32,000 bases of DNA. Origin: Bdellovibrionales bacterium (GTDB taxonomy: Bacteria > Bdellovibrionota > Bdellovibrionia > Bdellovibrionales > UBA1609). The stretch covers positions 390,001 to 422,000 of the forward strand of contig OY843585.1 in the NCBI GenBank assembly GCA_963692945.1. The letters run 5' to 3'. The first letter of the stretch is position 1; each line of letters opens with the position of its first letter. A program made the position numbers and the translations under genes. Shown one piece after another: positions 11,215 to 26,913 of the stretch. The notes below the pieces were generated by a model. The model saw only the letters and a list, made by a program, of their open reading frames with translations, did no database searches and was not told where the DNA came from.

Positions 11215-11291
11215 GGGGGCTTAGCTTAGTTGGTTAAAGCATCCGGCTCATAACCGGAGGATCGAAGGTTCGAGTCCTTCAGCCCCTACCA
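11215..11291 (+). tRNA. tRNA-Met (anticodon CAT), encoded CCA; a lysidine-modified tRNA-Ile2 cannot be excluded
   Basis: Hand-folded cloverleaf. Acceptor gggggct/agcccct (G1-U72 wobble), D stem gctt/aagc, anticodon stem tccgg/ccgga with loop CTCATAA, T stem gaagg/ccttc with loop ttcgagt, then A73 and CCA. It lacks the three consecutive G-C pairs of an initiator. Confidence 0.9.
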
Positions 11292-11294
11292 CTT
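11269..11294 (+). repeat. att-like direct repeat copy A (3' end of tRNA-Met plus 3 nt)
   Basis: ttcgagtccttcagcccctaccactt; identical 26-mer at 13314-13339 and an 18-nt core at 16011-16028. Confidence 0.85.
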
Positions 11295-11435
11295 GCCTCT
11301 TGAAACCCCTATGTTACTTAGCTTTTATGTTCTATTTTTTCACTCGCTGTGATTTGTCTGGAATGAGCGTGAAACTGCGGGAAATTCTGGGGAAAAACAT
11401 GGTTGTTAGTTATTGATTTTACTTAGTTTTTTCCG

Positions 11436-11467
11436 TTTTTCTAGGTTTTTATAAAACCCTTTTGTCA
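11436..11467 (+). repeat. 32-nt direct repeat R32, copy 1
   Basis: tttttctaggtttttataaaacccttttgtca, identical to 15979-16010, where it directly abuts att copy C. Confidence 0.85.
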
Positions 11468-11514
11468 CGTCTAAATAGTAGTGACTGCTGTTACATCCCG
11501 TTACATGTCTTAAC

Positions 11515-11589
11515 CTATTGAAATAACTAGGTTTTTAATGAATTTCTAGCTATAAAAATGTGGAGAAATTACATAAATTATGCCCAAAA
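11515..11589 (+). repeat. imperfect ~75-nt direct repeat, copy a (orphan gene-tail relic)
   Basis: Aligns with 11718-11793 (ctattGaaataaCtagGtttttAatgaatttct..cataaattatgcccaaaa). On the minus strand it ends in ..FWA-stop, like the real C-terminus of the 473-aa gene. Confidence 0.7.
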
Positions 11590-11717
11590 AGACATTTTTT
11601 TATATTTTAAATATTTTTTCTTAAAACCCAGCCTAACTTTCAAAAGCCTATAGCCTATATTTACAGTTAATTTGAATTTAAAGGCTTAAATAACATTGGT
11701 TTCTTACATACTTTGAT

Positions 11718-11793
11718 CTATTAAAATAATTAGATTTTTGATGAATTTCTGGGCTACTATATAAATATAAAATCATATAAATTATGCCCAAAA
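11718..11793 (+). repeat. imperfect ~75-nt direct repeat, copy b (overlaps the 3' end of the 473-aa CDS)
   Basis: See copy a. It covers the stop codon and last codons (..PFWA-stop) of CDS 11782-13203 plus its downstream flank. Confidence 0.7.
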
Positions 11794-13203
11794 TGGAATA
11801 TAAGAGCTATTGTCATTTTTCTTTTTTATCATTTGATATTCTATAGATTCTCTGATTACTTTAGACACCATTGTATATTTTTTTTCTTCTACTCCAAATC
11901 TTTTTCTTAAAGTTGTATTAGTCATTTTTTTATCTGAAACCCATTGCAAACACGCATGTTGGTAACAAGCTCTTACTCGTTCTTCTTTACTCATTTTAGA
12001 AAACGGCTTTGTTGCAAAAAGAGTTGTAATTGTAGAAAATTGAGTTTTACGAAAATCTGGAGCAGGTAACTGATAAAGTTCGGTTTGTGTAATAACTTTA
12101 TCTATACCACTTCCACGTTTTTCAGAGATATTTATTCTCCTCATAAAATCTACAAGTAATTCATTTCTTGATTTAGAAGGTTCATCTATAAAACGAAGAG
12201 TGTCAATAAGTGGTGTACCAGCATTAGAAATATCAATTCTGTTAGAGAATATTTCAATCATTGGGTTAGAACCTTGAAGATAAAAATCTTGATGTATAAG
12301 AGCATTAGCCACAAGTTCTCGAACAGCAGGTAAAGGAAACATTGATACTTCTTGTCTTAAAGCTCTTTTAATTTCTTCATTTTTGGGAACTTGGCTATCA
12401 ATATATTCAACTATGTTTTCAAATTCTATAGCATACCCTCGTTTAAAATGTTTTTCCCTTACTCCCTTAGTTTTATCAGAGCCAGCATAAACAATCACTC
12501 TTGGCACTTTATGCCTAAGAGAGTGAAAATGACCTAAGTCATGGCTGAACAAAAGTGCACCTAAATTTGTTATACTATAATTACTAAAGCTATTTTTTGT
12601 GACGATTTTTTCAGTTTCTAAACGTTCTAATATAGAAGCATGATTTTCTGGAATAGTTTGGTTAATTTTTCTAAAGTAGTTTGAATAGTCAATAAGATTT
12701 AAAACTTCAGAAGGTTCTATATTTCCAAGAGCTATATCTTCTTCAAAAGTTTTAGTTTCAAAGACTTTCCAAAGATTTCTTTCTTTTTCAGGATAATCTT
12801 TTAATTTTTTTGTGTAGCTACCGACACGAATATAATCAGTTTCTTTAAATCTTGTAGGTTGTATTCTTGCTGGGGAAATTTTAAAAATCACAATTCTTTT
12901 TGCATCAATAATTTCTTCGTGAATAGAAAAATTTATCTGAGATCCAAGTAATTTTAAAAGCCAATTTTCTAATTCTTCATTACCAACTTTATATTCTTTA
13001 GGTTTGAAATTAGTTCCAATAAATTGTTTATTATTATCAACACCCCATACTATATAACCCTGACCTTTATTTAATAAAGTTACTGTATTTGAAATAGCTG
13101 ATATGTTTTCTCCTATAGTATCAGGTTCAATATTGTCTTTTTTAAACTCTAACCATTCAGATTCTGAAGATTTAATAAGAGATCTAATTTGTAATTCAGT
13201 CAT
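11782..13203 (-). CDS. AlbA_2 (Schlafen-like) / HATPase_c_4 / C-terminal wHTH putative transcriptional regulator (RecG-like ATP-binding protein family)
   Basis: N-terminal SESEWLEFKKD..IGENISAISNT..GQGYIVWGVDN matches the AlbA_2 pattern. AVRELVANALIHQDFYLQGSNPMIEIFSNRIDISNAGTPL matches the HATPase_c_4 pattern. The C-terminal TNTTLRKRFGVEEKKYTMVSKVIRESIE looks like a wHTH. Confidence 0.7.
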   Translation of the reverse strand: MTELQIRSLIKSSESEWLEFKKDNIEPDTIGENISAISNTVTLLNKGQGYIVWGVDNNKQFIGTNFKPKEYKVGNEELENWLLKLLGSQINFSIHEEIIDAKRIVIFKISPARIQPTRFKETDYIRVGSYTKKLKDYPEKERNLWKVFETKTFEEDIALGNIEPSEVLNLIDYSNYFRKINQTIPENHASILERLETEKIVTKNSFSNYSITNLGALLFSHDLGHFHSLRHKVPRVIVYAGSDKTKGVREKHFKRGYAIEFENIVEYIDSQVPKNEEIKRALRQEVSMFPLPAVRELVANALIHQDFYLQGSNPMIEIFSNRIDISNAGTPLIDTLRFIDEPSKSRNELLVDFMRRINISEKRGSGIDKVITQTELYQLPAPDFRKTQFSTITTLFATKPFSKMSKEERVRACYQHACLQWVSDKKMTNTTLRKRFGVEEKKYTMVSKVIRESIEYQMIKKKNDNSSYIPFWA

Positions 13204-13313
13204 AGCACAATCTTTATACTCTCTTTTACTTTCTAGTTTAAGTTTTATTACAATGGTTTTTCAATTTCTATAAAATCTAATTTTTTGTTTAAAGGGTTAT
13301 TAACTAAAATCTC

Positions 13314-13339
13314 TTCGAGTCCTTCAGCCCCTACCACTT
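13314..13339 (+). repeat. att-like direct repeat copy B
   Basis: Perfect 26-nt copy of 11269-11294. No cloverleaf upstream, so this is a tRNA 3' fragment only. Confidence 0.85.
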
Positions 13340-13383
13340 TGATTTGTAACTTTATTATCTTCATAGATAGAAAAGCAAAAATT

Positions 13384-13713
13384 TTAGTCCAGTACTCCAT
13401 CCATCCAAAGAAAGAATCGCTCGGATATTGTTAAATGGTGAGCAGGGTTATCTTTTAAGAACTGAGCTGTTTTCCGATGACCATTCCAATAAGCCAAATA
13501 AAAAGCTGTGACAGTCTCATCTCGTTTAGCATTCACATCAGCTCCTTCATTAATTAATTTTTCAACAGTGTCTAATTGACCAGTGTAAGAAGCTAATAAT
13601 AAATCTTTGTTTCTATCATTTTGAATAGTATTTTCTTGAATAGTTTGGCGTGATTTAGGAAAAGCTTGAAATATTCCAGAAAAAATAAATAGTAATATCA
13701 ATAGTTTTTTCAT
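13384..13713 (-). CDS. small secreted ankyrin-repeat protein
   Basis: Signal peptide MKKLLILLFIFSGIFQAFP, then LLLASYTGQLDTVEKLINEGADVNAKRDETVTAFYLAYWNGHRKTAQFLKDN, which fits the ankyrin consensus (..G..D.V..Li..GADvNa.. / ..a...Gh...a..L). Confidence 0.7.
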   Translation of the reverse strand: MKKLLILLFIFSGIFQAFPKSRQTIQENTIQNDRNKDLLLASYTGQLDTVEKLINEGADVNAKRDETVTAFYLAYWNGHRKTAQFLKDNPAHHLTISERFFLWMDGVLD

Positions 13714-13763
13714 AAAATCCTCCGTTTTAGAGATAATATTTAGAGGTAATAAATTTTTTTAGC

Positions 13764-14087
13764 TTAGTCTTTTATGCTCTTGAATGCCATGTAACAATTT
13801 CCAACTCCAATTGATAATAATATTGCTCCAAGATAGGGTGAAGCAGAATTCGCCATTTCGAGACCCATAACCGACGCTCCGAGACCAAGATTAAATCCTC
13901 CAACAGTTGCTGCAAATACCCCCACACCAACCTGAAACCCAGGTTTGTCCATAAGTTGGTTAATTGCATCTGTGGTTGATTGATTCTTCTCTATACTTTG
14001 ACTTTCAGATGCATTAGAAAAACCAAGAGTTGGAAATCCAACGGCAAAAACAAAAGCGAATAAATAAGTAAAAAGTTTAAATTTCAT
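13764..14087 (-). CDS. secreted glycine-zipper small protein, paralog 1 (107 aa)
   Basis: Start moved to the ATG at 14087, preceded by SD AAGGGGG. Sec signal MKFKLFTYLFAFVFAVGFPTLGFS, then a Gly/Ala-rich mature part with GxxxG-type spacing (GVGVFAATVGGFNLGLGASVMGLE..YLGAILLSIGVGNCYMAFK). Paralogs at 16484-16828 and 16947-17295. Confidence 0.65.
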   Translation of the reverse strand: MKFKLFTYLFAFVFAVGFPTLGFSNASESQSIEKNQSTTDAINQLMDKPGFQVGVGVFAATVGGFNLGLGASVMGLEMANSASPYLGAILLSIGVGNCYMAFKSIKD

Positions 14088-14199
14088 TGAGAACCCCCTT
14101 TGATTAAATAACTCAATATACATTGAATACTAAATGAAAGTAGAAATGTAAAGCGGAACTTTCAGAAGAAAGCCTTTAAAATAAGGCTTTTTTTAGTTT
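14016..14199 (-). repeat. conserved 5' module of the glycine-zipper cassette, copy 1 (promoter + leader + signal-peptide coding)
   Basis: About 184 nt, near-identical to 16757-16940 and 17224-17406. On the minus strand it holds TTTACA-17 nt-TATTCA and SD AAGGGGG. Its upstream end carries a hairpin, aaagcctt/aaggcttt (14169-14190), which reads as a T-tailed terminator on the plus strand. Confidence 0.8.
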
Positions 14200-14426
14200 G
14201 TGTCCTGAAAATCAGCCCAAAATATGTCAGAAGACTTCAGAAGAAATCTCTCTAAAGTGAGATTGTAAAAAATTGTTTCTCTAAAATCTTTATAGTTTTT
14301 AAAAATGGCAGAATCTGTTTTTTTCTGCCGTATCTCTATTTAACAACGCAACAACTTTAGCATACTTTTCTGTCATATAATTCAGAACAAGATTCAGAAA
14401 TTCATAAAAAAGTACTTTTTTTGTAG

Positions 14427-14451
14427 AAATACCTTAAAAATTAAGGTATTT
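14427..14451. promoter_or_regulatory. perfect palindrome, candidate AbiEi operator
   Basis: aaataccttaa-aaa-ttaaggtattt: 11-bp arms, 3-nt spacer. The half-site taaggtatttt recurs at 14494-14504, overlapping the abiEi SD. A TATAAT hexamer sits at 14476-14481. Confidence 0.45.
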
Positions 14452-14507
14452 TAAAGAAAAATGTTTAAAATAATGTATAATTATATTAAAATCTAAGGTA
14501 TTTTGAA

Positions 14508-15074
14508 ATGAAAGCTTATAAAAAACTACATCAAATCACTTTTAAACAAGGTGGACTTTTTACAGCTAAACAAGCTGAATCTTGTGGATATGCACGAAGC
14601 AATCATCATTATCATATCAAAACAAAAAACTGGATTAAAGAGGGCTGGGGAATTTACCGACTGGCTCACATTCCAGTTGATGAGATGACTTTTTACTGGA
14701 AATGTCTTTTGTGGAGTTGCAACAACAAAAGTGAACCTACAGCTGTTTTTTCCCATAGAACAGCCTTGAGTTTTTATGAGTTATCTGATGTTAATCCCAG
14801 TAAAGTCACAATGATAGTTTCTAAAAAATTTCAAAAACGATCCCAACCTTTTAAGATGCTACGAATATGTAAAAAGGATTTGTCAAAAAAAGATGTTCAA
14901 CAGTTTAAAGGACTTCCTGTTACAACACCTTTAAGAACATTGCTGGATATGTATGAAGAAGAATCTCTTCCTGAGAGTGTTATGGAACAGGCTGTGAAAG
15001 AAGCATTGGAAAAAGGTCTCATTAGAAAATCTGATCTCAAAAAAAACTCTGAACTAGCGAGGTTTTCTCTTTGA
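14508..15074 (+). CDS. abiEi: type IV toxin-antitoxin system AbiEi-family antitoxin
   Basis: N-terminal wHTH pattern GGLFTAKQAESCGYARSNHHYHIKTKNWIKEGWGIYRLA. 4-nt overlap with the downstream AbiEii gene. Confidence 0.75.
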   Translation: MKAYKKLHQITFKQGGLFTAKQAESCGYARSNHHYHIKTKNWIKEGWGIYRLAHIPVDEMTFYWKCLLWSCNNKSEPTAVFSHRTALSFYELSDVNPSKVTMIVSKKFQKRSQPFKMLRICKKDLSKKDVQQFKGLPVTTPLRTLLDMYEEESLPESVMEQAVKEALEKGLIRKSDLKKNSELARFSL

Positions 15075-15940
15075 AACCTGTAGATAAATATAAAACTGCG
15101 GCAGACTTCCGTAGGGCTGTAAAAAACAAATTGAATGAGATCAGTCAGAATACAGGACAGGATATTCAAAGACTTTATCGTCAAACATCCTATGTTCAAT
15201 TTTTAGCAAGGCTATTTTTAGATGATAATGTTTCTTGGGTATTAAAAGGAGGTCACGCTTTAGAGTTAAGATTGCAAAAATCCAGAGCAACAAAAGATAT
15301 TGATTTAGCTATGAAAGATATGGAATGGATTCATTTCAAAAAAGAGGAAAAATCATCTGCTCTTAGAGAACTGCTTTTGGAAAAATCTCAAATAGACCTT
15401 GAAGATTATTTTCAATTTAAAATTTCTAAACCTATTTTATCTTTGTATGGTGCTCCTTATGGTGGAATTAGGTTTCATATTGAAGCAATGATTGATGGTA
15501 AAACATTCAGTAAATTTTTAATAGATATTGGTATTGGGGATGCTTGGATAGAACCTCAGGACACTCTTCAATTATTAAGTCATTTGGAAGAACTAGGTTT
15601 AAAAAACTTTACAATAAAAGTTATTCCTATTGAGCATCATATCGCTGAAAAAATACATGCTTTAACTCTTCCACGAGATGCGGTTAACTCCAGAGTTAAA
15701 GATCTAGTTGATTTATTTTTAATATTTAAATTTGAGAAGTTTTCCAAAGAGAAGACCAAGGATTGTATAAAAGAAACTTTTATTAAAAGGAATACTCATA
15801 AAATTCCTATAAAGCTTCCACTTCCAAATGTATCATGGGAAAAACCTTTTAATAGTATGGTGGATTCGATTGACGAAAAAATCACTATGCATGAAGCTTT
15901 TAAGATCGTTAATCAGTATTTTAAATCTCATTTGTCCTAA
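15071..15940 (+). CDS. abiEii: AbiEii/AbiGii-family nucleotidyltransferase toxin
   Basis: TTG start overlapping the abiEi stop. FLARLF..WVLKGGHALELRL..SRATKDIDLA is the DUF1814/AbiEii nucleotidyltransferase signature. 289 aa is the typical size. Confidence 0.85.
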   Translation: MKPVDKYKTAADFRRAVKNKLNEISQNTGQDIQRLYRQTSYVQFLARLFLDDNVSWVLKGGHALELRLQKSRATKDIDLAMKDMEWIHFKKEEKSSALRELLLEKSQIDLEDYFQFKISKPILSLYGAPYGGIRFHIEAMIDGKTFSKFLIDIGIGDAWIEPQDTLQLLSHLEELGLKNFTIKVIPIEHHIAEKIHALTLPRDAVNSRVKDLVDLFLIFKFEKFSKEKTKDCIKETFIKRNTHKIPIKLPLPNVSWEKPFNSMVDSIDEKITMHEAFKIVNQYFKSHLS

Positions 15941-15978
15941 TTTCATCTTGATCTTAAGAAAATTAAAACCTTTATAGT

Positions 15979-16010
15979 TTTTTCTAGGTTTTTATAAAAC
16001 CCTTTTGTCA
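15979..16010 (+). repeat. 32-nt direct repeat R32, copy 2
   Basis: Identical to 11436-11467; immediately followed by att copy C. Confidence 0.85.
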
Positions 16011-16028
16011 GTCCTTCAGCCCCTACCA
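16011..16028 (+). repeat. att-like direct repeat copy C (18-nt core)
   Basis: gtccttcagcccctacca, identical to 11275-11292 within the tRNA 3' end. Confidence 0.8.
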
Positions 16029-16123
16029 TTTTCAAAACTCTAGTTCTTCTCTTCTTACTTTTTGAGTTTTCATCGTAAGAGGGACACTCTTTTACAAAAC
16101 TCTCGTTCAAAAAAATATTTCCT

Positions 16124-16187
16124 ACTCTTATTCTAACGAGTTTTCATCGTAGGAGGGATACTCTTCAAATCTCGTTAGAATAAGAGT
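16124..16187. repeat. 17-bp perfect inverted repeat (long stem-loop)
   Basis: actcttattctaacgag (16124-16140) and ctcgttagaataagagt (16171-16187), separated by 30 nt. The loop contains the second copy of the gagttttcatcgta(a/g)gaggga(c/t)actctt motif. Confidence 0.8.
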
Positions 16188-16214
16188 TACTTAATAGGTT
16201 TATTGTGTGAACGA

Positions 16215-16380
16215 GAGAAAACCTACTGGTTTTCGCATGAGTGAGGCAGAGAAAACCTACTGGTTTTCTTTCGCATGTAATGAGGTAGGAAAAACTTCTG
16301 TTTTTCGCATGTGGGGACGCTCTTCAAATCTCGTTAAAATAAAAGTTTTAACATAGAGAAAAACTTCTGTTTTTCGCATG
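16215..16380. repeat. array of four short hairpin repeats (GAAAAYC-tNct-GRTTTTC-GCATG)
   Basis: Hairpins at 16217-16234 and 16251-16268 (gaaaacc-tact-ggttttc) and at 16289-16306 and 16358-16375 (gaaaaac-ttct-gtttttc). Three are followed directly by gcatg; in the second, four extra nucleotides precede it. The C-G to A-T change in the stem is compensated. Spacing is irregular (34, 38, 69 nt). Confidence 0.8.
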
Positions 16381-16483
16381 AGTGAGCGAAAGATAAATGA
16401 TTTTAAGAGAAACCTTTTGAGAGCTTAAAAACCCAACTAAAAAGGAACTTACAAACTTAATAAAAATAAAATAATTTACTAAT

Positions 16484-16828
16484 CTACAACGGGAGAGCTT
16501 TTTTAGCTTTCATCCCTTGACCCTTGAATACATTATAACACATCTGTATTCCAAGTGTAGCAAGTAAGGTTCCCATTGTTGCCTGTATTACTGGTAACAC
16601 AACAGGCATGCTCGAACCTAATTCTATTGCTATTACTCCTGCTGTTGCAAAACCCATCGAACCTACCCCTGCACCTATAGCTCCTATCCCTAAAAGTTTA
16701 TTCGCTGTGGAAAGTTTTTCTTCTTTTTCAACTGTATCTTTTTTTTCAGATACATCAGAAAAACCAAGAGTTGGAAATCCAACGGCAAAAACAAAAACGA
16801 ATAGATAAGTAAAAAGTTTAAATTTCAT
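16484..16828 (-). CDS. secreted glycine-zipper small protein, paralog 2 (114 aa)
   Basis: Start at the ATG at 16828 behind SD AAGGGGG. Signal MKFKLFTYLFVFVFAVGFPTLGFS, then a divergent Gly/Ala-rich mature region LLGIGAIGAGVGSMGFATAGVIAIELG..TLLATLGIQMCYNVFKG. Confidence 0.65.
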   Translation of the reverse strand: MKFKLFTYLFVFVFAVGFPTLGFSDVSEKKDTVEKEEKLSTANKLLGIGAIGAGVGSMGFATAGVIAIELGSSMPVVLPVIQATMGTLLATLGIQMCYNVFKGQGMKAKKALPL

Positions 16829-16940
16829 TGAGAACCCCCTTTGATTAAATAACTCAATACACATTGAATACTAAATCAAAGTAGAGATGTAAAGAGGAAC
16901 TTTCAGAAGAAAGCCTTTAAAATCAAGGGTTTTTTAGTTT
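16757..16940 (-). repeat. conserved 5' module of the glycine-zipper cassette, copy 2
   Basis: Near-identical to 14016-14199. Putative promoter on the minus strand: -35 TTTACA (16893-16888), 17-nt spacer, -10 TATTCA (16870-16865). Confidence 0.8.
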
Positions 16941-16946
16941 AGTTTT

Positions 16947-17295
16947 TTATTCCTTGAATGCCAAGTAACAACCTATAGCTCCAGCTGATAATCCTACTGT
17001 TGCTCCAATTGTATAGAATAAAGAAGGTTCCACATGCGGCAGTACGATACCAAGATAGGGTGCAACAGAATTCGCCGTTTCGAGACCAAGATATGCCGCT
17101 CCGAGACCAAGATTAAATCCTCCAAATGCCCCCGCACCCAAAAGAAACAGTTTTTTCCATAAGGTGGTTAATTTCATCTACGGTTGATTGATTCTTCTCT
17201 ATACTTTGACTTTGAGATTCATTAGAAAAACCAAGAGTTGGAAATCCAACGGAAAAAACAAAAACGAATAAATAAGTAAAAAGTTTAAATTTCAT
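16947..17295 (-). pseudogene. glycine-zipper small protein paralog 3, frame disrupted in an A6 run
   Basis: ORF-track entries 17113-17295 (signal peptide + linker) and 16947-17177 (GGFNLGLGAAYLGLE..CYLAFKE) are the two halves of one paralog of 13764-14087. The frames switch at T6/A6 (17151-17156). Removing one A gives a continuous 115-aa ORF (..INHLMEKLFLLGAGAFGGFNLG..). Confidence 0.7.
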
Positions 17296-17406
17296 TGAGA
17301 ACCCCCTTTGATTAAATCAACAACAAAACTATGTATTTAATACTAAATCAAAGTAGAGATGTAAAGAGGAACTTTCAGAAGAAAGCCTTTAAAATCAAGG
17401 GTTTTT
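17224..17406 (-). repeat. conserved 5' module of the glycine-zipper cassette, copy 3
   Basis: Near-identical to the other two modules, except for a substituted ~20-nt stretch in the leader (17318-17338). Confidence 0.75.
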
Positions 17407-17551: not shown

Positions 17552-18889
17552 TTATAAAAAATTAGATTTACAACCAGATCTATCTAAAGAAAATAGATCT
17601 TTGATTTGGTTATAAAGTTCTGTCCCTTTTTTATGATTTTGTTGTTTGGATTTTTCTGTCCAATAAAAAGCAGTTTGAAAATTTTGTACAACTCCTTCAC
17701 CATTGTAATACATCAACGCCAACCTGTATTGAGCAAAAGGATAATTTTGCTGAGCCGCTTTTTCAAACCATTTAAGAGATTCTTCTAAATTTTTTGGGAC
17801 ACCTTCGCCATTGTAATACATCAATGCCAATTCAGATTGGGCGATCACATAACTTTGTTCGGCTGCTTTTTTAGTGTATTCAAAAGCGGTTTCTAAATTT
17901 TTTTGGACACCTTTGCCTTTGTAATACATCCATCCCAACCAATGTTGAGCAGGAGCATAATTTTGCTCAGTTGCTTTTTTAATCCATTTAAAAGATTCTT
18001 GAAAATTTTGTGTTACTCCTTCACCAAAATAATACATTATTCCCAAATCATATTGAGCAGGAATATAATTTTGTTCGGCTGCTTTTTTTAAATATTTAAA
18101 AGCTTCTTCTAGATTTTTATTTACTACTGCACCTGCATAATGTATCTGTCCAAGATTGTATGTAGCCAGAACATCATTTTCTTTAACCCTATCTTCTAAT
18201 TGATTTAAAAATTCTTTTTTGCATTGGAGGAAACTTTTATTGCAATCTTGCTTTATCATTTTTGTAATGACTTCTTTGAGACGAATTATTTTTGTCATAG
18301 ACCCTATGTAATTTTCGCTTTTAAAATGCACTCCAACAACTTGCCCTTGCTTGTCTAAAACAGGACTCCCACTTGCCCCCCTTAAAGGATAATGACTTAT
18401 AGGGTAAGAATATAAATAATTATCTTTATAAATAGCATCTCCTGTTTTCCTTACTCTTTTAAAAAGACCATCGGGATAACCAGAGATAAAAAGATTTTCA
18501 TTGGTTTCCACAGGTTCTTCTCTTAGCTTGAGATAGTCGTTGGAAGATTCTTTTGTTTCAATAAGAGCAAGGTCATGTAATGCAAAGACAGCAAGAATTT
18601 TTTTTACATGTATCTTAGAGAGATGATCTTTTTGAGTGAGATGGATTTCTTGTTCCTTAGAGTCTTTTAATAAATAATCTATCACATGAAAGTTTGTGAT
18701 GAAATGATTTGGACTTATAAAGAATCCTGTTCCACCAAAAAGCTTTGAAGTTTTTAGACTCCATATTGCTCTTTCTACTTTTGAAAGATAAGTTTCAAGA
18801 GCTGAGAGTTGAGCCTTTTGAGGTAAAATATTTTGAGCGAAAGATAGAACAGAAAAACTCAACAAAAGAAAAACAATAAAAAATTTCAT
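17552..18889 (-). CDS. secreted trypsin-like (S1) serine protease fused to C-terminal Sel1 (SLR/TPR-like) repeats
   Basis: Signal MKFFIVFLLLSFSVLSFA. Catalytic triad contexts GTGFFISPNHFITNFHV (His), HDLALIE (Asp) and GASGSPVLDKQGQVVGVH (Ser). These are followed by about five Sel1 units (e.g. AQYDLGIMYYFGEGVTQNFQESFKWIKKATEQNY). Confidence 0.8.
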   Translation of the reverse strand: MKFFIVFLLLSFSVLSFAQNILPQKAQLSALETYLSKVERAIWSLKTSKLFGGTGFFISPNHFITNFHVIDYLLKDSKEQEIHLTQKDHLSKIHVKKILAVFALHDLALIETKESSNDYLKLREEPVETNENLFISGYPDGLFKRVRKTGDAIYKDNYLYSYPISHYPLRGASGSPVLDKQGQVVGVHFKSENYIGSMTKIIRLKEVITKMIKQDCNKSFLQCKKEFLNQLEDRVKENDVLATYNLGQIHYAGAVVNKNLEEAFKYLKKAAEQNYIPAQYDLGIMYYFGEGVTQNFQESFKWIKKATEQNYAPAQHWLGWMYYKGKGVQKNLETAFEYTKKAAEQSYVIAQSELALMYYNGEGVPKNLEESLKWFEKAAQQNYPFAQYRLALMYYNGEGVVQNFQTAFYWTEKSKQQNHKKGTELYNQIKDLFSLDRSGCKSNFL

Positions 18890-19029: not shown

Positions 19030-20052
19030 CTACAGCTGGTATTCAAAACCGATGGAAACCATCGGATTGCTGCTGAAAGAGTTTCCTTTATAGAAAAGAT
19101 TTTTAGGACATACTACTTTATTTTTTTCTTCAGCTTTAGGAAAAATAGGTCGGTTAATTCCAGAAATAACATTACATTGTGCTTTGGCTCGACTAAATGG
19201 AACAAGACTGACTTCAACTGTTGAAGCAAGATGTTTTGTCCACCAGTATTTAGCTCCAACGAAAACCTGAAAATATTTTAATACAGTTGCTCCAGACCCT
19301 TTTCTGTAGGGGCCAGATAAATCTGTTTCTTCTACTGTTTCATTTTCATCACTCACCTGTAATTCATTGTTCACTTGTAATACATCATTTAATCCTATTT
19401 TTTCTACTCCTACTTCTTCTACTGTTTCTACTGATTCATTATCATGTCGCCAACCTAGATCAGATGATCTTGATGCTTTTCTACCAAAAAAAATGTCAAA
19501 CACTTTAAGGATACTGGAGACACTTTTAACTATACCATCTTCCATATCTTCAAAACTAAACACTTCTGTATGTCTTACTCCCCCAAAGGGTTCAAAGACT
19601 TTCTTATTTTTTAATTTCATTTTATGACTCGCTAAAAGAGCTCCACTGAGATAACCTCTTGCTAATGAAAAAAATAGAGATTCCCCTGTAGGAGGATCTC
19701 CTTTTATATATCCAGTTCCTAAAGAACCCCCAAAAGACCAACCCATTTTTTGATTATTAACAGGAGCATATTTCAATTGAAGTCCTATGTTTTCTGGAGA
19801 TTCCATTTGAATTCCTATATCTACATTATTTAAAACCCCATAATCATATCTTAATTGTCCTATTGCATTGTAGGTTATGTTGTTTGGACCTTGTTTTAAG
19901 GTGGTAGGGAGTGGATTTAACGATGCTCTTACACTGTGATTTCGTTTTCCAAGAGTACGCGCTGTATCTCCGTTTGAAACAGGACCAATGGGTTCTAACT
20001 GAACACAACCTAAAATAAATAAACTTAATAAAATTAAAAGATATTGTTTCAT
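19030..20052 (-). CDS. hypothetical lipoprotein, possibly outer-membrane beta-barrel-like
   Basis: Lipobox MKQYLLILLSLFILGC. Alternating beta-strand-like segments, an acidic insert (DNESVETVEEVGVEKIGLNDVLQVNNELQVSDENETVEETD) and a C-terminal ..VSIGFEYQL. Confidence 0.55.
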   Translation of the reverse strand: MKQYLLILLSLFILGCVQLEPIGPVSNGDTARTLGKRNHSVRASLNPLPTTLKQGPNNITYNAIGQLRYDYGVLNNVDIGIQMESPENIGLQLKYAPVNNQKMGWSFGGSLGTGYIKGDPPTGESLFFSLARGYLSGALLASHKMKLKNKKVFEPFGGVRHTEVFSFEDMEDGIVKSVSSILKVFDIFFGRKASRSSDLGWRHDNESVETVEEVGVEKIGLNDVLQVNNELQVSDENETVEETDLSGPYRKGSGATVLKYFQVFVGAKYWWTKHLASTVEVSLVPFSRAKAQCNVISGINRPIFPKAEEKNKVVCPKNLFYKGNSFSSNPMVSIGFEYQL

Positions 20053-20129: not shown

Positions 20130-21824
20130 TTAGAAAACTTGTCTACATAAAACTCTATTAGGTGCACCATAATTAGTTTTTCTGTTTTTTGATTTTTGAG
20201 ATAGACTTTGTGTTTCTAAATTTTTTAAGGTTCTTGCTCTTTTAACTAATTTTTTATTTCCAATAGTCCTTAGGAAATAGCTATTTAAGATTTTTAAGAT
20301 ATTTCTACCTTCAGTTTGTTTTTTATTTGATAAAATGGATGTCCATTTTGGAACATGATAGAGATTTTGAGCCAATGTTTGATCTAGTACAAGTAAGAAT
20401 AAAGATTTTACTTGTCTCACTGGTTTCCAGTTTTTATTTATGAGATATAAAAGTTCATTATCTTTAACTTTTAAATTGGAACTGATTTGTGGGGAATAAA
20501 TTTTTTTATGTCTTTTTAAAAGATTGGCAAGAGAAAAATATAAGCTTTCAAGTTCTTCCCCTGTGACATACAAGGTGTGTACATTTTGATTCTTTGGGTA
20601 AAAAGTGCTTATTAAATTAGAATCAATCAATGTTTTTTCCCTAATAAAATCATTTCTTTGATAAAGGTTACTATCTAAAAAAACAGCTATATAGGTTTTA
20701 GTTTGATAAATCTTTTCCATGGGAATTTCTCTATAAGCCCATAGCCTTAATGTCTCTGCTAATAGAGTTCCTAAAATGGTTCTCCGATTTAAAAAGGCTT
20801 TTCTGTTATCCATCAAATGTCTTGGAATGAATTTATTAGATTGAAATCTTTTATATTCAATAGCATGAACAACGGGTTTAATTTTATCAGTGATTATTTT
20901 AGACTCTAAACTTGTCTCATCTATTTTACTAAGTAAATATCTTCTTTTTTCTTGATCATAAAAAGTGCTATCTATAATTTGACCTTCATCATCTAAAAGG
21001 ACAGAAGTGAAATTAAAAAAATCTCCAGAGCTAATCATCCGTGAATTTCTGAATTCTATATTTTTTACAGCATGATGATGTCCTAAAAAGATGGCAGAAA
21101 TTTTATGAGTCATGTCCTCAGAACAACATCTCAATTTACGATCTAATTTTTTAAAATGATTACTTACAGCTGAAGATCCTTCGTGAAAAGCTAACACCAG
21201 AGAAGAGATCAAAGAATTTTTATGAGTCTCTTTGATTACACTGTAAAGTCTTTCTTCAATGGGATAAAAACTTGTAAAAACTTTTGGTTTTAAATATTTA
21301 TTCCATCCACTTTTTTGAGGAAAATTGGATAAAGTGAATCCAGCAAAACGAACCGATTTCTCCCCCAGAGGAATATCTACAAATTTTGCAAAAAGATTTT
21401 TAAATTTGTGAACAAAATTGGCATTGGCGGCTAAAAGGTGTACTCCTGCCTCTTTCAACAAACTCATTTGATTTATAAATAAATTTGTATCCTTCCAGTC
21501 AAAAGCTTCGTGATTTCCAAATACAAAAACCACTTCATATTTTTGAGCCAATTGACTTAGAACCTCATAACCCAGCTGACCTTTGTCTCCCTCAGTCCAA
21601 ATGCTTTTTGAAGAATAGTCCCCGTTAATTAAAATCAGCACTTTACCATTAGGGTAGGAGCTTTTAAACTCCCGAGATAAAACTTCAACAGAAGCTACAA
21701 AACTCATCATTTGTCTGTATTCAGAGTGTTGATCAGAACTTTGGATGACCAACAGTTCAGCAAAGACATAAGAGTGAAAGGAAAATAAGAAATAGAGTAA
21801 AATGCTAATACTAGATAATTTCAA
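20130..21824 (-). CDS. secreted calcineurin-like metallophosphoesterase (5'-nucleotidase-like N-domain)
   Basis: Motifs SDQHS, NGDYS, GNHEAFDW and LGHHH. The ORF-track start (21905) gives an odd N-terminus. TTG at 21824 gives (M)KLSSISILLYFLFSFHSYVFA, a good signal peptide. The start is uncertain. Confidence 0.7.
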   Translation of the reverse strand: MKLSSISILLYFLFSFHSYVFAELLVIQSSDQHSEYRQMMSFVASVEVLSREFKSSYPNGKVLILINGDYSSKSIWTEGDKGQLGYEVLSQLAQKYEVVFVFGNHEAFDWKDTNLFINQMSLLKEAGVHLLAANANFVHKFKNLFAKFVDIPLGEKSVRFAGFTLSNFPQKSGWNKYLKPKVFTSFYPIEERLYSVIKETHKNSLISSLVLAFHEGSSAVSNHFKKLDRKLRCCSEDMTHKISAIFLGHHHAVKNIEFRNSRMISSGDFFNFTSVLLDDEGQIIDSTFYDQEKRRYLLSKIDETSLESKIITDKIKPVVHAIEYKRFQSNKFIPRHLMDNRKAFLNRRTILGTLLAETLRLWAYREIPMEKIYQTKTYIAVFLDSNLYQRNDFIREKTLIDSNLISTFYPKNQNVHTLYVTGEELESLYFSLANLLKRHKKIYSPQISSNLKVKDNELLYLINKNWKPVRQVKSLFLLVLDQTLAQNLYHVPKWTSILSNKKQTEGRNILKILNSYFLRTIGNKKLVKRARTLKNLETQSLSQKSKNRKTNYGAPNRVLCRQVF

Positions 21825-22096
21825 AAAACCTTCTTTTAAGATGAAAGTGCATCTAATTGGAATTCTATTCGGTTTTAGATAGAGTTTAAATAAGATAATA
21901 ATCAAGATGCATCATTTTAAATGAGAATCAGAAAAACGAGATGTTTTTTGAATATTTTGTTAAGTCAGTGCTTATATTTTTGTCTTTTTTTTAAAATATC
22001 TTAAAAAAAGGGTTGAATAAAATAGGAGCTACCTTCTAAGTTTATTTGCATTTGAATAGGGAAAATTCAAAGCAATGATGGATGTTTTTGTATTTC

Positions 22097-23923: not shown

Positions 23924-24994
23924 TTAAGACCAAGATTGCCAATAATTTTCAATTTCAAGTTCTTTAAGTTGGGAATGTTGTTTTAAAGATTGTTTTGAGT
24001 CTATCATGACAGCACATTCATTTGTCCAAGTTTTATCTTTTATTTTTTCAATTGCTTTTGGATGAGGTCCATGAGGAAATCCTGGAGGATGAAAACTCAT
24101 CATACCAGCATGAAGATGATCTCGGCTAAAAAAATCTCCGTCATGATAAAAAAGCACTTCATCATAGTCTGTATTTTGATGATAAAAAGGAACTTTTAAA
24201 GCATCTTTATCTTGCTCTAAAGGCCTTGGAAGAAAACTACAAACAATAAACTCTTTTGTTACAAAAGTAGAGTGGATGCTTGGTGGAAGATGAACGCGAT
24301 GACTCATAACAGGCATAATGTCATTCATATCTAGGGTGTAAGGAAATAAATCTCCTTTCCATTCTACAACATCAAATAAGCACTCTTTATAAGTGAATAT
24401 GGTTTTTTGATCTTGATGATGAACAATCATTTTTTTAAACTCTAATTTGTTGTTTTTCAAATAGTTGTTGAGAGATTTTAAATCAGGACGAATCAAAGAA
24501 TCCGAATCATAGAGGCCATGTCGTCCGAGAAGTCCTCTGTCTGGAGATTGAAAATGACTTTTCAAACTTTCTACAACAAAGAAACTTGAATTTTGAGAAG
24601 GTATAAAAACATGGCTAAAAGATTTAGGAATAACAATGTATTGTCCAGAGTGATAGTTTAGTAATCCATACTCTGTAAGAACAACACCTTCTCCTTTGTG
24701 ACAAAAGTACAAAAGATCTCCATTTGCATTTTTAAAGAGTTCTGAGGAGTGTCCCTTGCAATTTAAAAAATTAATTTTTAAATTGTCATTATAGAGAAGT
24801 GGTTTCCATGTTTGTAGATTGTTTTTTGAAACCAAGTCAAACATTCTAGGTTTTAAAGAACCGTCAATATGACTCCATCTTGTACTTGGATTTTTCCGTA
24901 TCAGATGAGAGACAGGTCCATAAAATCCATCTTGTCCTTGTTCCTCTTCAAAGAAACCTTTTGGGATGTTTTTGTGAGGCTGTCTTTTTTTCAT
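23924..24994 (-). CDS. hmgA: homogentisate 1,2-dioxygenase (short cupin-type)
   Basis: PFYHQNTDYDEVLFYHDGDFFSRD and GMMSFHPPGFPHGPHP give the His/Glu/His metal-ligand contexts of HGO. ATGA overlap with hppD; pathway context. Confidence 0.82.
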   Translation of the reverse strand: MKKRQPHKNIPKGFFEEEQGQDGFYGPVSHLIRKNPSTRWSHIDGSLKPRMFDLVSKNNLQTWKPLLYNDNLKINFLNCKGHSSELFKNANGDLLYFCHKGEGVVLTEYGLLNYHSGQYIVIPKSFSHVFIPSQNSSFFVVESLKSHFQSPDRGLLGRHGLYDSDSLIRPDLKSLNNYLKNNKLEFKKMIVHHQDQKTIFTYKECLFDVVEWKGDLFPYTLDMNDIMPVMSHRVHLPPSIHSTFVTKEFIVCSFLPRPLEQDKDALKVPFYHQNTDYDEVLFYHDGDFFSRDHLHAGMMSFHPPGFPHGPHPKAIEKIKDKTWTNECAVMIDSKQSLKQHSQLKELEIENYWQSWS

Positions 24995-26040
24995 TTCAGA
25001 TAACCTCTCTTGATTTGATCTCTTTCTATAGCGTCAAAAAGAGCTTGAAAATTTCCTTCACCAAAACCTTCATGGCCATGTCTTTCTATCACTTCAAAAA
25101 AAATAGGACCAATAACATTTTTTGTGAAAATTTGAAGGAGATAAACTTTGTCGTCTCCATCAGCAAGAATTTGGTTGGATTCTAAATCTTTTATATCTTC
25201 TTTTATGGAAGGGAGCCGATCTTTTAAAACTTCATAATAGGTTGAAGGAATGTCTAAAAATTTCAGACCTTGTTTTTTTAAATGATCAATAGTGTGGACC
25301 ATTTTTTTAGTTAAAAGAGCAATGTGTTGAATGCCTGGTCCGTTGTATTCATCTAAATATTCTTGAATTTGAGATTTTTTGCCAGCTTTATCATTGGATG
25401 GTTCATTGATGGGAATATTTATAGTGTTGCAAGGGGATTGCATAACTTTTGAAACCAATCCTGTTTTTAAACCTTTAATGTCAAAATATCTTCTTTCTGT
25501 AAATCCAAAAATGGTAGAATAAAACTCACTCCAGTGATTCATTTTTCCAGAAGGTACATTATTTGTCAGATGATCCACTGATAATAATCTAGGATTTTCT
25601 GGAGATTCATTAGTAAAAGAAAATTTTTTGTTCCAGTGATTGTTTTCTTTTTGATAGTCTTCCACAAAATAAATCAAAGAATTTCCTACACCATATAGAG
25701 CTGGAAAACTATGGCTTGTTGTATCTTTTTCAACAGGTTTTGCTCCTAAGCTAATAGCAATGTCTAAAACTTCTTGTGCTGGAATATTCACTCTAAAACC
25801 TATAGAACAAACACAAGGTCCTTTTCGTTCTTTCATAAAATCGGAAGCAAAACTATCTTTTTGTTTGTTGATAACAAAGTTGCAATCTCCCAACTGAAAC
25901 AGTTGGACATCTTTTGTTTTATGAGAAGCTGTTTGTATAAAATCAAATTGCTGGAATAAATTTTTTAATTTTTTTGGTTCAGGACTAGCGTACTCAATAA
26001 AGTCTATTCCGTTTAAAGGAATTTTTGGAGTGGCTTTCAT
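24991..26040 (-). CDS. hppD: 4-hydroxyphenylpyruvate dioxygenase
   Basis: GIQHIAL, YLLQIFT and IFFEVIERHGHEGFGEGNFQALFDAIERDQIKRG are classic HPPD C-terminal motifs. The ORF track starts at GTG 26043; ATG 26040 is the adjacent alternative. Confidence 0.93.
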   Translation of the reverse strand: MKATPKIPLNGIDFIEYASPEPKKLKNLFQQFDFIQTASHKTKDVQLFQLGDCNFVINKQKDSFASDFMKERKGPCVCSIGFRVNIPAQEVLDIAISLGAKPVEKDTTSHSFPALYGVGNSLIYFVEDYQKENNHWNKKFSFTNESPENPRLLSVDHLTNNVPSGKMNHWSEFYSTIFGFTERRYFDIKGLKTGLVSKVMQSPCNTINIPINEPSNDKAGKKSQIQEYLDEYNGPGIQHIALLTKKMVHTIDHLKKQGLKFLDIPSTYYEVLKDRLPSIKEDIKDLESNQILADGDDKVYLLQIFTKNVIGPIFFEVIERHGHEGFGEGNFQALFDAIERDQIKRGYLK

Positions 26041-26048
26041 CACGAGGA

Positions 26049-26076
26049 ATTATAACAAAGCTTTTGATTTTTACAA
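26049..26076 (-). promoter_or_regulatory. putative strong promoter of hppD-hmgA, implying a leaderless or near-leaderless mRNA
   Basis: Minus strand: -35 TTGTAA (26076-26071), 16-nt spacer, extended -10 TGTTATAAT (hexamer 26054-26049). Only 5-8 nt separate the hexamer from GTG 26043 / ATG 26040, and there is no SD. Confidence 0.4.
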
Positions 26077-26210
26077 GATTTTATATTAGCGGGGATTGAT
26101 TTTATATATAGAATTTAGAAAAGTTAAAGTTTCCTACTCATTTTATCAACTTGCTTAGGAATCGCTTTTTTAAAGAATGTAAAAAACTTGAGTGAGAATT
26201 TTACAATATC

Positions 26211-26849
26211 TTAGTTTAGGGCATCCGGTTGATTTTCTGGGAGTGCTTTTTGAAAAGCAGGGAGTGCTAGGCAGTTTTTTTCAATTTGACTTAACACTGG
26301 AAAAAGACTCATATCTATTTTAAATCTTTTAGCATTGTAGATTTGAGGGATTAAAAAAACATCGGCACAGGTTAGAGTTTCACCAAAGGCAAATGTTTTG
26401 GCTTTGGGTTTTAAAAGATTTTCTAGAGAAGTGAATCCTTTTTTTATCCATTTTGTCGCCCATTCTTTTTTATCCACTTTTAAATTTTCTTCTAGATGAT
26501 TGAGGACAGAAAAATTTTGAAGGGGTTGAATAAAACTATTGATAATCTCACAAACAGAGAGGACTTCAGCTCGCAAAAAGGTTTTTTGAGGTAATAAAGC
26601 AGGTTTAGGCCAAATCTCTTCTAAATAAAGGATTATAGGAAGGGATTGAGATAAGACTTTATGATTATGTTCTAGACAAGGAACTTGAGAAAAAGGATTT
26701 ATTTTTTTAAACTCTTCTTTGTATTGTTCTCCTCCAGATTGGACTAAGTGAATGGCTTTGTAAGTGAAAGGGATGTTTTTTAAATAAAGGGCAATGCGGA
26801 CACGATAAGAACAAGAGGATCGGAAATAACTATACAATTTGACTTTCAT
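26211..26849 (-). CDS. maiA: maleylacetoacetate isomerase (zeta-class GST)
   Basis: LYSYFRSSCSYRVRIAL is the zeta-GST signature; NP..QVPCL; 212 aa; pathway context. Confidence 0.9.
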   Translation of the reverse strand: MKVKLYSYFRSSCSYRVRIALYLKNIPFTYKAIHLVQSGGEQYKEEFKKINPFSQVPCLEHNHKVLSQSLPIILYLEEIWPKPALLPQKTFLRAEVLSVCEIINSFIQPLQNFSVLNHLEENLKVDKKEWATKWIKKGFTSLENLLKPKAKTFAFGETLTCADVFLIPQIYNAKRFKIDMSLFPVLSQIEKNCLALPAFQKALPENQPDALN

Positions 26850-26913
26850 TATTTAAGAAGTAGTTATAAAAAGATCATTGGTCAACATTTTTAATAGAGA
26901 AAAGGAGAGAAAA

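Follow-up and report, generated by a model that had tools for sequence, protein, structure and literature searches.

Three short cassettes on the minus strand of a 32,000-nucleotide (nt) stretch from a Bdellovibrionales bacterium (contig OY843585.1, positions 390,001 to 422,000; called the window here, with all positions given in its own numbering) constitute a real, sequence-novel and orphan family of small proteins. Each cassette carries an almost identical 5' module, comprised of an upstream segment and a signal-peptide coding segment, followed by a mature region that differs between the copies. With moderate confidence we read the cassettes as genes for small Sec-exported proteins that would be cleaved after LGFS, with a Gly/Ala-rich mature part that would lie as a helical hairpin in a membrane, likely that of the cell's own envelope, and with 5' ends made alike by a gene-conversion tract. 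The initial annotation of this DNA had proposed a new modular toxin system in which a conserved export and expression module is joined to variable membrane-active payloads; this claim is not supported by the analysis. The cassettes and their parts are as follows.

13764 to 14087, minus strand: copy 1 coding sequence, type A, intact (precursor of 107 amino acids, aa); signal residues 1-24 at 14016-14087 and mature part of 83 aa at 13767-14015.
14088 to 14199, minus strand: copy 1 upstream module with hairpin, putative -35, putative -10 and Shine-Dalgarno (SD) site.
About 14165-14194, minus strand: copy 1 terminator-like hairpin AAAGCCTT-ATTTT-AAAGGCTTT.
14147-14152 and 14124-14129, minus strand: copy 1 putative -35 (TTTACA) and putative -10 (TATTCA) of a predicted promoter.
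14094-14100, minus strand: copy 1 SD site AAGGGGG, 6 nt before the ATG of MKFKLF.
16484 to 16828, minus strand: copy 2 coding sequence, type B, intact (precursor of 114 aa); signal at 16757-16828 and mature part of 90 aa with K-rich tail KGQGMKAKKALPL.
16829 to 16940, minus strand: copy 2 upstream module; putative -35 at 16888-16893, putative -10 at 16865-16870.
16947 to 17295, minus strand: copy 3, type A', frameshift-disrupted, as defined by the open reading frame (ORF) listing and alignment.
17296 to 17406, minus strand: copy 3 upstream module; putative -35 at 17360-17365, putative -10 (TATTAA) at 17337-17342.

The initial annotation had reported three minus-strand cassettes with a nearly identical 5' module of about 184 nt, and both alignment and probes confirm them at these coordinates. 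The motifs that it quoted (TTTACA-17-TATTCA/TATTAA, SD site AAGGGGG, the signal and the C-terminal CY..FK) are likewise present in the sequence. A three-way DNA alignment sets the shared module at 184 nt, made up of 112 nt of upstream sequence and the first 72 coding nt, which encode the signal part. Exact probes of 45 nt and 27 nt from the module have three matches each, compared with 0 expected by chance. All units follow one order: first a terminator-like hairpin, then a putative promoter and a strong Shine-Dalgarno site, and finally the ORF. The module of copy 2 starts about 10 nt after the stop codon of copy 3, so that these units lie head to tail, and the junction ...CTAAAAAA precedes the module of copy 1 as well as that of copy 2. 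In the upstream module of copy 3, the interval from the -10 to the SD site is altered by substitutions and an insertion of 5 nt.

The 112 noncoding upstream nt are 84-93% identical between pairs and the 72 signal-coding nt are 97% identical in every pair. Past the signal, identity falls to 47-52% between copy 2 and copies 1 and 3, and is 78-91% for copy 1 against copy 3. The break in identity of copy 2 lies about 15 nt past the Ser24 codon, just beyond the predicted signal-peptidase site. The payloads had been described as divergent, and the sharp break after the cleavage site upholds this description; the implication that they are unrelated does not hold, as BLASTP detects a weak homology between the mature part of copy 2 and its counterparts in copies 1 and 3 (E values of 4e-4 and 4e-5).

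The synonymous divergence (dS) follows the same boundary. In the signal part dS is 0-0.064 in all pairs, the value of 0.064 for copy 2 against copies 1 and 3 representing 1 change in about 16 synonymous sites. In the mature part the same comparison gives a dS of 1.3-1.6, or about 31-36 changes in 46-58 sites, and copy 1 against copy 3 gives 0.165. Differences at synonymous and noncoding positions are beyond the reach of purifying selection on a signal peptide, which indicates that gene conversion or recombination among old paralogues has homogenized the 5' module. A pattern of module identity like this would not be expected from selection on the protein alone. Taken together, the alignments fit a tandem family of old origin in which a 5' tract was recently converted, and the end of this tract would lie about 15 nt past the cleavage site. 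Because the payloads share ancestry and architecture, partial gene conversion would explain the pattern without any exchange of payloads. In the sequence of events that we favor, three paralogues of a lineage-restricted family, two intact and one recently frameshifted, would have arisen by head-to-tail multiplication of the unit, with one unit now residing inside a tRNA-Met island remnant.

The modules also have features of potential regulatory relevance. The modules of copies 2 and 3 (16829-16940 and 17296-17406, minus strand) carry at their 5' edge a sequence, AACCCTTGATT, with complementarity to the SD region, AATCAAAGGGGGTT, and their predicted folds reach minimum free energies of -26.0 and -24.6 kcal/mol (z-scores -2.9 and -2.6). 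The corresponding spot in copy 1 has become a local terminator-like hairpin through two substitutions. On the basis of these three sequences, pairing between AACCCTTGATT and AATCAAAGGGGGTT could occlude the SD site in read-through transcripts. A check by eye for a sigma-28-type promoter gave no match. A reading of the module as a known noncoding RNA family is rejected, as an Rfam scan returned only the tRNA.

Several properties of the cassette ORFs bear on whether they are translated. Codon log-odds in frame are +0.33 to +0.43 bits per codon for the three copies (+0.35 for copy 1) and negative off frame, under a codon model trained on the large genes of the window in which bona fide genes score 0.42-0.64. 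Copy 3 is split into a 60-aa ORF that ends prematurely (17113-17295) and a 76-aa ORF in another frame (16947-17177) by a +1 frameshift, namely one extra A in the A6 run at 17151-17156. Deleting one A from this run yields a precursor of 115 aa that is 73% identical to copy 1, and with the extra A gone, the indels of 15 nt and 48 nt that separate copies 1 and 3 preserve the frame. Copy 2, although synonymously saturated relative to the others, keeps the length, the layout and the terminal CY..FK, and a G...CY..FK C-terminal end is invariant across the three copies. The dN/dS ratio (nonsynonymous over synonymous divergence) of copy 2 against copies 1 and 3 is 0.45-0.62. Since codon usage is host-like, the indels are in frame and the copies have one common architecture, the cassette ORFs look truly coding.

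Copy 3 had been listed as a cassette like the others. Its module is indeed present; an intact ORF is not, and the copy 3 motifs that were quoted sit in two frames. It is plausible that the A6 frameshift is a real mutation because the housekeeping genes of the window (recA, dnaG, rpoD and pilT) are intact, with a homopolymer assembly error being the alternative. Two copies, 1 and 2, are thus intact, one of type A and one of type B. Database gene models for these two are 119 and 126 aa long and start 12 codons earlier (at 14123 in copy 1). The MKFKLF methionine appears to be the likelier start, since SD site AAGGGGG lies 6 nt ahead of it and the upstream ATG used by the database models is absent from copy 3. 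Models that start 12 codons too early bury the signal peptide of copies 1 and 2.

By inspection, the shared signal MKFKLFTYLF[AV]FVF[AS]VGFPTLGFS has an n-region MKFK, a Phe-rich h-region of about 14 residues and a c-region PTLGFS with Pro at -6, Gly at -3 and Ser at -1, and the next residue is N or D. The features of a protein secreted through Sec and signal peptidase I (basic n-region, hydrophobic h-region, small residues at -3 and -1, no lipobox) are thus all visible. There is no Cys in the signal of any of the three copies and hence no lipobox, as the initial annotation had noted. The mature parts measure 83, 90 and 91 aa (copies 1, 2 and repaired 3). Each begins with a polar, mostly acidic stretch of about 22 aa, continues with a hydrophobic 55-65 aa and ends in a short, charged C-terminus that is K-rich in copy 2; Gly accounts for 13% and Ala for 11% of the hydrophobic region. 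A single conserved Cys is found in each mature part, in the terminal CY..FK motif. Net charges of the mature peptides are -2, -5 and +2. Maximal hydrophobicity (KD19, the Kyte-Doolittle mean over 19 residues) is 1.35-1.81 in the mature part, which has two hydrophobic stretches, and 1.84-1.97 in the signal.

Small residues are modestly enriched at i/i+4. The small-xxx-small triples number 7, 7 and 4, compared with 3.0, 2.9 and 1.9 in shuffled sequences (P 0.03, 0.03 and 0.13), and there are only 1-4 true GxxxG pairs. The small-xxx-small spacing that had been pointed out is therefore present as an enrichment that is only weak (P 0.03-0.13 against shuffles). The ending of copy 3 ('VEPS + hydrophobic + K') was considered as a PEP-CTERM or other C-terminal sorting signal and rejected, as it has no NCBIfam match and is absent from copies 1 and 2.

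From these features we propose that the precursor is directed to the Sec translocon by its n-h-c signal and that signal peptidase I most likely cuts after ...LGFS. Cleavage would release a protein of 83-91 aa with an acidic, polar N-terminal segment of about 22 aa. The Gly/Ala-rich 55-65 aa that follow probably form two helices separated by a short loop of E, S and P, and the two helices would insert as a membrane hairpin that may self-associate through its small-residue faces. The conserved Cys of CY..FK would then be available for a disulfide bond. The site of action would most likely be the cell's own envelope and less likely the membrane of another cell.

Homology searches returned nothing that would attach the proteins to a known family. 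A phmmer-type search with full-length copy 1 against 5.8e9 proteins found nothing beyond the window's own ORFs, no other protein among these 5.8 billion has the same leader, and a profile of the mature region found no relative outside the window among 1.84e9 representatives. None of the glycine-zipper families (PF13488, PF13436, PF13441, PF05433) was matched when copies 1 and 2 were run through hmmscan on Pfam-A with a limit of E<=1; the best Pfam-A matches (ETRAMP, DUF1206 and Polysacc_synt) are noise far under the cut-offs. Searches of NCBIfam, PHROGs and Protein Data Bank (PDB) sequences gave no match, and neither a bacteriocin family model in Pfam or NCBIfam nor a homologue of a known bacteriocin was hit. 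The suggested comparison with Pfam glycine-zipper and class II bacteriocin families thus came back without a match. Six-frame tblastn against plasmids and phages was empty, back-translated leader patterns were found in no genome, metagenome or viral contig, the exact 31-nt module DNA was absent from metagenome and viral contigs, and no peptide homologue was found in the 80 loci of the synteny comparison. Since the proteins of the source genome are in the databases searched, this genome seems to hold no further annotated members of the family. The statement that the family is an unnamed one therefore stands: no homology to any named family was found in Pfam, NCBIfam, PHROGs, PDB or the protein databases.

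Several points weigh against the reading of an exported envelope hairpin with a converted 5' end. The inference of conversion is drawn from three sequences of one genome, in which tracts can be neither dated nor formally tested. The dN/dS of copy 1 against copy 3 is 1.39, a value that has as its basis about 8 synonymous changes and a pair in which one partner is a pseudogene; a ratio of about 1.4 is compatible with relaxed constraint. For the same reasons this ratio does not show diversifying selection, for which the initial annotation had suggested a synonymous/nonsynonymous comparison across genomes. The putative promoter TTTACA-17-TATTCA/TATTAA has poor -10 hexamers that lack the terminal T, and a consensus promoter scan did not list them; of the promoter annotated earlier the hexamers are present and their quality is in doubt. 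The mature helices are of borderline hydrophobicity for a stop-transfer role, so the protein might move on to the periplasm or further instead of being retained in the inner membrane. The K-rich tail of copy 2 would be periplasmic under the hairpin topology, contrary to the positive-inside rule. Lastly, an AlphaFold2 model built on the three-sequence alignment, although all-helical and to that extent in favor of the reading, is unreliable, with a predicted local distance difference test score of 44.

The host has a G+C content of about 32%. Its RpoD is nearest to those of Bdellovibrionia or 'uncultured Bdellovibrio' metagenome-assembled genomes (MAGs), at 57-59% identity, and synteny with those MAGs is found upstream of a tRNA-Met gene and not downstream of it. 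Going by these comparisons, the host is a low-GC Bdellovibrio-like bacterium that is distant from the Bdellovibrionia MAGs. The neighboring features that bear on the cassettes are as follows.

11215 to 11291, plus strand: tRNA-Met gene, the 3' end of which is the repeated attachment-site-like sequence.
13314 to 13339, plus strand: first copy of the tRNA-Met 3' end (26-nt match), at the boundary of remnants A and B.
16010 to 16028, plus strand: second copy of the tRNA-Met 3' end (19 nt, exact), at the outer boundary of remnant B.
13384 to 13713, minus strand: small ankyrin-repeat protein of 109 aa with its own N-terminal signal-like sequence.
17552 to 18889, minus strand: secreted protein with a trypsin-like peptidase domain and five Sel1 repeats, immediately upstream of copy 3.

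Exact repeats of the 3'-terminal 19 nt of the tRNA-Met gene are found at 13318-13336 and 16010-16028. These repeats delimit two tandem island remnants, A (11292-13336) and B (13337-16028), neither of which has an integrase, and they confirm the earlier description of a tRNA islet with copy 1 and the ankyrin gene inside and with copies 2 and 3 outside, downstream of the protease-Sel1 gene. Remnant A carries a Schlafen AlbA_2/HATPase_c_4 protein of 473 aa (11782-13203, minus strand). Remnant B carries the ankyrin gene, copy 1 and an AbiEi/AbiEii pair, in which an AbiEi-like gene overlaps that of an AbiEii nucleotidyltransferase to form a toxin-antitoxin pair (14508-15940, plus strand). The cargo of both remnants has a defense-related look. 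Directly upstream of the AbiEi-like gene are two tandem 52-nt repeats (71% identical, 14422-14525), each with a short palindrome of the type CCTTAAAAATTAAGG; the repeats may serve as an operator through which the antitoxin regulates itself. The spacer that separates copy 2 from the outer tRNA repeat (16155-16420) is built of degenerate tandem units with a period of 34-38 nt and contains the hairpin motifs CATGCGAAAAACAGAAGTTTTTC (three times) and TAACGAGATTTGAAGAG..TCCC (twice), with no Rfam match.

The ankyrin gene and copy 1 share a strand with a gap of 50 nt, the ankyrin gene being downstream, and the two may be cotranscribed; no relative of the ankyrin protein beyond itself was detected. 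On the other side of the cassettes, the trypsin-like/Sel1 protein belongs to a large and highly paralogous family in Bdellovibrio-like MAGs. This genome has at least 4 more paralogues at 46-50% identity, and one European Nucleotide Archive assembly contig carries an array in which 10 of the 12 other called genes match the same trypsin or trypsin-Sel1 families; this is a striking lineage-specific expansion. The association of the cassettes with the protease-Sel1 gene is not conserved in relatives, a related peptide being present in 0 of 4 protease-Sel1 neighborhoods examined in other assemblies. Among the large ORFs scanned there is no ABC transporter, HlyD-type protein or C39 peptidase, and no immunity-like small membrane ORF lies beside the cassettes. 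The ORFs scanned around the cassettes include no recombinase or phage gene, and repeat finding revealed no inverted recombination sites among the cassettes.

Farther along, a tyrosine-catabolism-like cluster at 23924-27888 encodes a 4-hydroxyphenylpyruvate dioxygenase, a weak homogentisate dioxygenase-like protein, a glutathione S-transferase-fold protein and a protein with a weak match to a fumarylacetoacetase model; this cluster would be notable if the 1.56-Mb contig represents a small genome. Three large ORFs, at 19030-20052, 20130-21905 and 29210-31273 (minus strand; products of 340, 591 and 687 aa), could be assigned to no family or only marginally to one; a calcineurin-like phosphoesterase domain in the 591-aa protein is the sole match that exceeds a curated cut-off.

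Of the other explanations for the cassettes, the one that survives best, while still unlikely in our judgment, is that they encode a Sec-dependent, bacteriocin-like or predation-related membrane toxin. This may be a two-peptide toxin comprised of A (copy 1 or ancestral copy 3) and B (copy 2), in which glycine-zipper helices would depolarize the target membrane and the adjacent, periplasmic ankyrin protein would be the candidate self-protection factor. The size, cleavable leader, Gly/Ala core and short charged C-terminus match general features of CdzC/D-like and class IIb bacteriocins (PMC5380434). Two peptide types stand side by side in copies 3 and 2, and the genome retains exactly one intact gene of each type. 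Within the remnant of a mobile element, copy 1 has an AbiE toxin-antitoxin pair as its neighbor, the host is Bdellovibrio-like, and self-protection is a known role of one ankyrin protein of Bdellovibrio, Bd3460 (PMC4686830). However, no double-glycine leader, ABC or type I exporter or small membrane immunity ORF exists in or near the cassettes and no bacteriocin or glycine-zipper model was matched. The mature peptides are not cationic (net -2, -5 and +2) and their zipper periodicity is weakly above chance. Furthermore, the family is absent from all other genomes searched, relatives included, and no homologue of the ankyrin protein was detected through which the pairing could be followed. The pattern of a polymorphic toxin or bacteriocin that the initial annotation saw here thus has no immunity gene, transporter or toxin hallmark nearby to go with it. 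Its modular system with swappable payloads amounts to three copies in one genome, one of them a pseudogene, and a leader found on no other protein among the 5.8 billion searched.

We consider it improbable that the N-terminal segment is an uncleaved signal anchor, which would make the products three-helix small inner-membrane proteins with an accessory, stress or holin-like role that are not secreted. Such an anchor would be consistent with a long and very hydrophobic N-terminal segment (KD19 1.84-1.97), with lengths of about 107-115 aa that include three hydrophobic stretches and a charged C-terminus, and with copies that adjoin mobile-element remnants. It is countered by a textbook signal peptidase I site in 3 of 3 copies, with Pro, Gly and Ser at -6, -3 and -1 and polar, acidic residues after it, and by the lack of phage genes, an endolysin or a PHROG match. 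The most elaborate form of the toxin proposal is, to us, slightly more doubtful than this anchor. It would have a new Sec-exported, two-component glycine-zipper toxin (A from copy 1, B from copy 2) directed at prey or competitors, with ankyrin-based self-protection and with the module acting as a recombination-portable terminator-promoter-leader cassette, in a Bdellovibrio-like host with a reduced genome.

It is quite improbable that the cassettes are young or decaying orphan genes without function, island cargo nearing loss, with the module similarity a product of recent duplication. One copy is already frameshifted, the dN/dS of copies 1 and 3 is about 1.4, there is no homologue elsewhere and the genes adjoin island remnants that lack an integrase, all of which speaks for decay. 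Yet copy 2, at a dS of 1.3-1.6, has kept its ORF, length, architecture and CY..FK with a dN/dS of 0.45-0.62, codon usage is host-like and the indels between copies are in frame. Very improbable, finally, is a variable surface or envelope family under phase or antigenic variation in which the conserved module would let alternative payloads be expressed, with the copy 3 A-run frameshift as its on/off switch. In its favor, the conserved 5' untranslated region (UTR) and signal with divergent mature parts recall the Mycoplasma vpma/vsp layout (PMC2268961) and the frameshift lies within a homopolymer; against it, there are only three copies, no lipobox, recombinase or inverted recombination sites, an A6 run that is short for slipped-strand switching, and mature parts that are largely membrane-buried in character and not surface-exposed repeats.

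If the preferred reading of exported envelope proteins with a converted 5' tract is correct, the case illustrates how partial gene conversion can make old paralogues resemble a 'conserved module plus swappable payload' system. Genome scans should discount a module/payload pattern when copy number is small and partner genes are absent. The cassettes add one more orphan family of small exported proteins. Should they prove membrane-active, they would represent a sequence-novel, Sec-dependent counterpart of the glycine-zipper bacteriocins from a poorly known, predator-related lineage, and the possible ankyrin partner would then echo the known self-protection logic of Bdellovibrio.

Among known systems, the closest in outline is CdzC/CdzD, the contact-dependent glycine-zipper bacteriocin of Caulobacter crescentus, whose peptides are 84-86 aa long within a Cdz-like set of 60-151 aa (PMC5380434). 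The Cdz leader ends in G[G/A/S], secretion occurs through a dedicated type I secretion system, CdzAB, and immunity is provided by CdzI (PMC5380434). The precursors described here (107, 114 and, for the repaired third copy, 115 aa) are within the Cdz-like length range, and like Cdz they have a removable leader, a core in which Gly and small hydrophobic residues abound, a C-terminus that is short and charged or polar, and two peptides encoded side by side. In contrast, the cassette leader is of the Sec type and ends in GFS rather than in G[G/A/S], and no type I secretion genes or membrane immunity gene are nearby among the ORFs scanned. The mature part has only 13% Gly and an irregular zipper, and it shows no similarity to bacteriocin-type models. 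Where Cdz-like peptides are defined by one or two uninterrupted zipper motifs flanked by Pro or charged residues, the cassettes have 7, 7 and 4 small-xxx-small triples and 1-4 GxxxG. The likeness of the cassettes to glycine-zipper bacteriocins is one of outline only.

Class IIb and Sec-dependent class II bacteriocins (e.g., of the enterocin P type) are as a rule cationic peptides of 25-60 aa that come with an immunity gene, and are made by Gram-positive bacteria. They share with the cassettes the nature of small unmodified peptides, GxxxG-type helices that are thought to insert into target membranes and, in some members, a Sec signal in place of a double-glycine leader. The cassette peptides differ in that they are 83-91 aa and mostly acidic, come from a Gram-negative, Bdellovibrio-like host and have no immunity gene and no Pfam match. 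The glycine-zipper envelope families (Gly-zipper_Omp, Gly-zipper_OmpA, Gly-zipper_YMGG and the two-transmembrane Rick_17kDa_Anti/SlyB type) are similar as small exported envelope proteins with Gly-rich paired helices. These Pfam families are, however, mostly lipoproteins with a lipobox, whereas the cassettes have neither a lipobox nor a match to the hidden Markov models at E<=1.

Polymorphic toxins (Rhs, CdiA, LXG) combine a large, conserved delivery domain with a variable C-terminal toxin and a cognate immunity gene. The cassette products, on the other hand, are about 110 aa long with the signal peptide as the sole conserved part, no toxin-domain match and no immunity ORF. The ankyrin gene brings to mind Bd3460 of Bdellovibrio bacteriovorus, an ankyrin self-protection protein that neutralizes DD-endopeptidases and not peptides (PMC4686830). 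In both cases an ankyrin-repeat protein directed to the periplasm (here by prediction) is encoded beside a secreted factor in a Bdellovibrio-type bacterium, but the 109-aa protein of the window has no detectable relatives and is likened to Bd3460 by context only.

In the organization of the genes themselves, the nearest parallel is found in the Mycoplasma vpma, vsp and vlp families, in which the 5' UTR and signal-coding region are highly conserved among paralogues and the mature parts are divergent (PMC2268961). Those families differ from the cassettes in that they encode lipoproteins with repeat-rich surface domains that are switched by recombinases or promoter homopolymers; the cassettes have no lipobox, no recombinase, three copies only and hydrophobic payloads. 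A conserved 5' UTR and signal joined to a divergent mature part is thus a known layout in several bacterial gene families, and in the present case it is explained by gene conversion.

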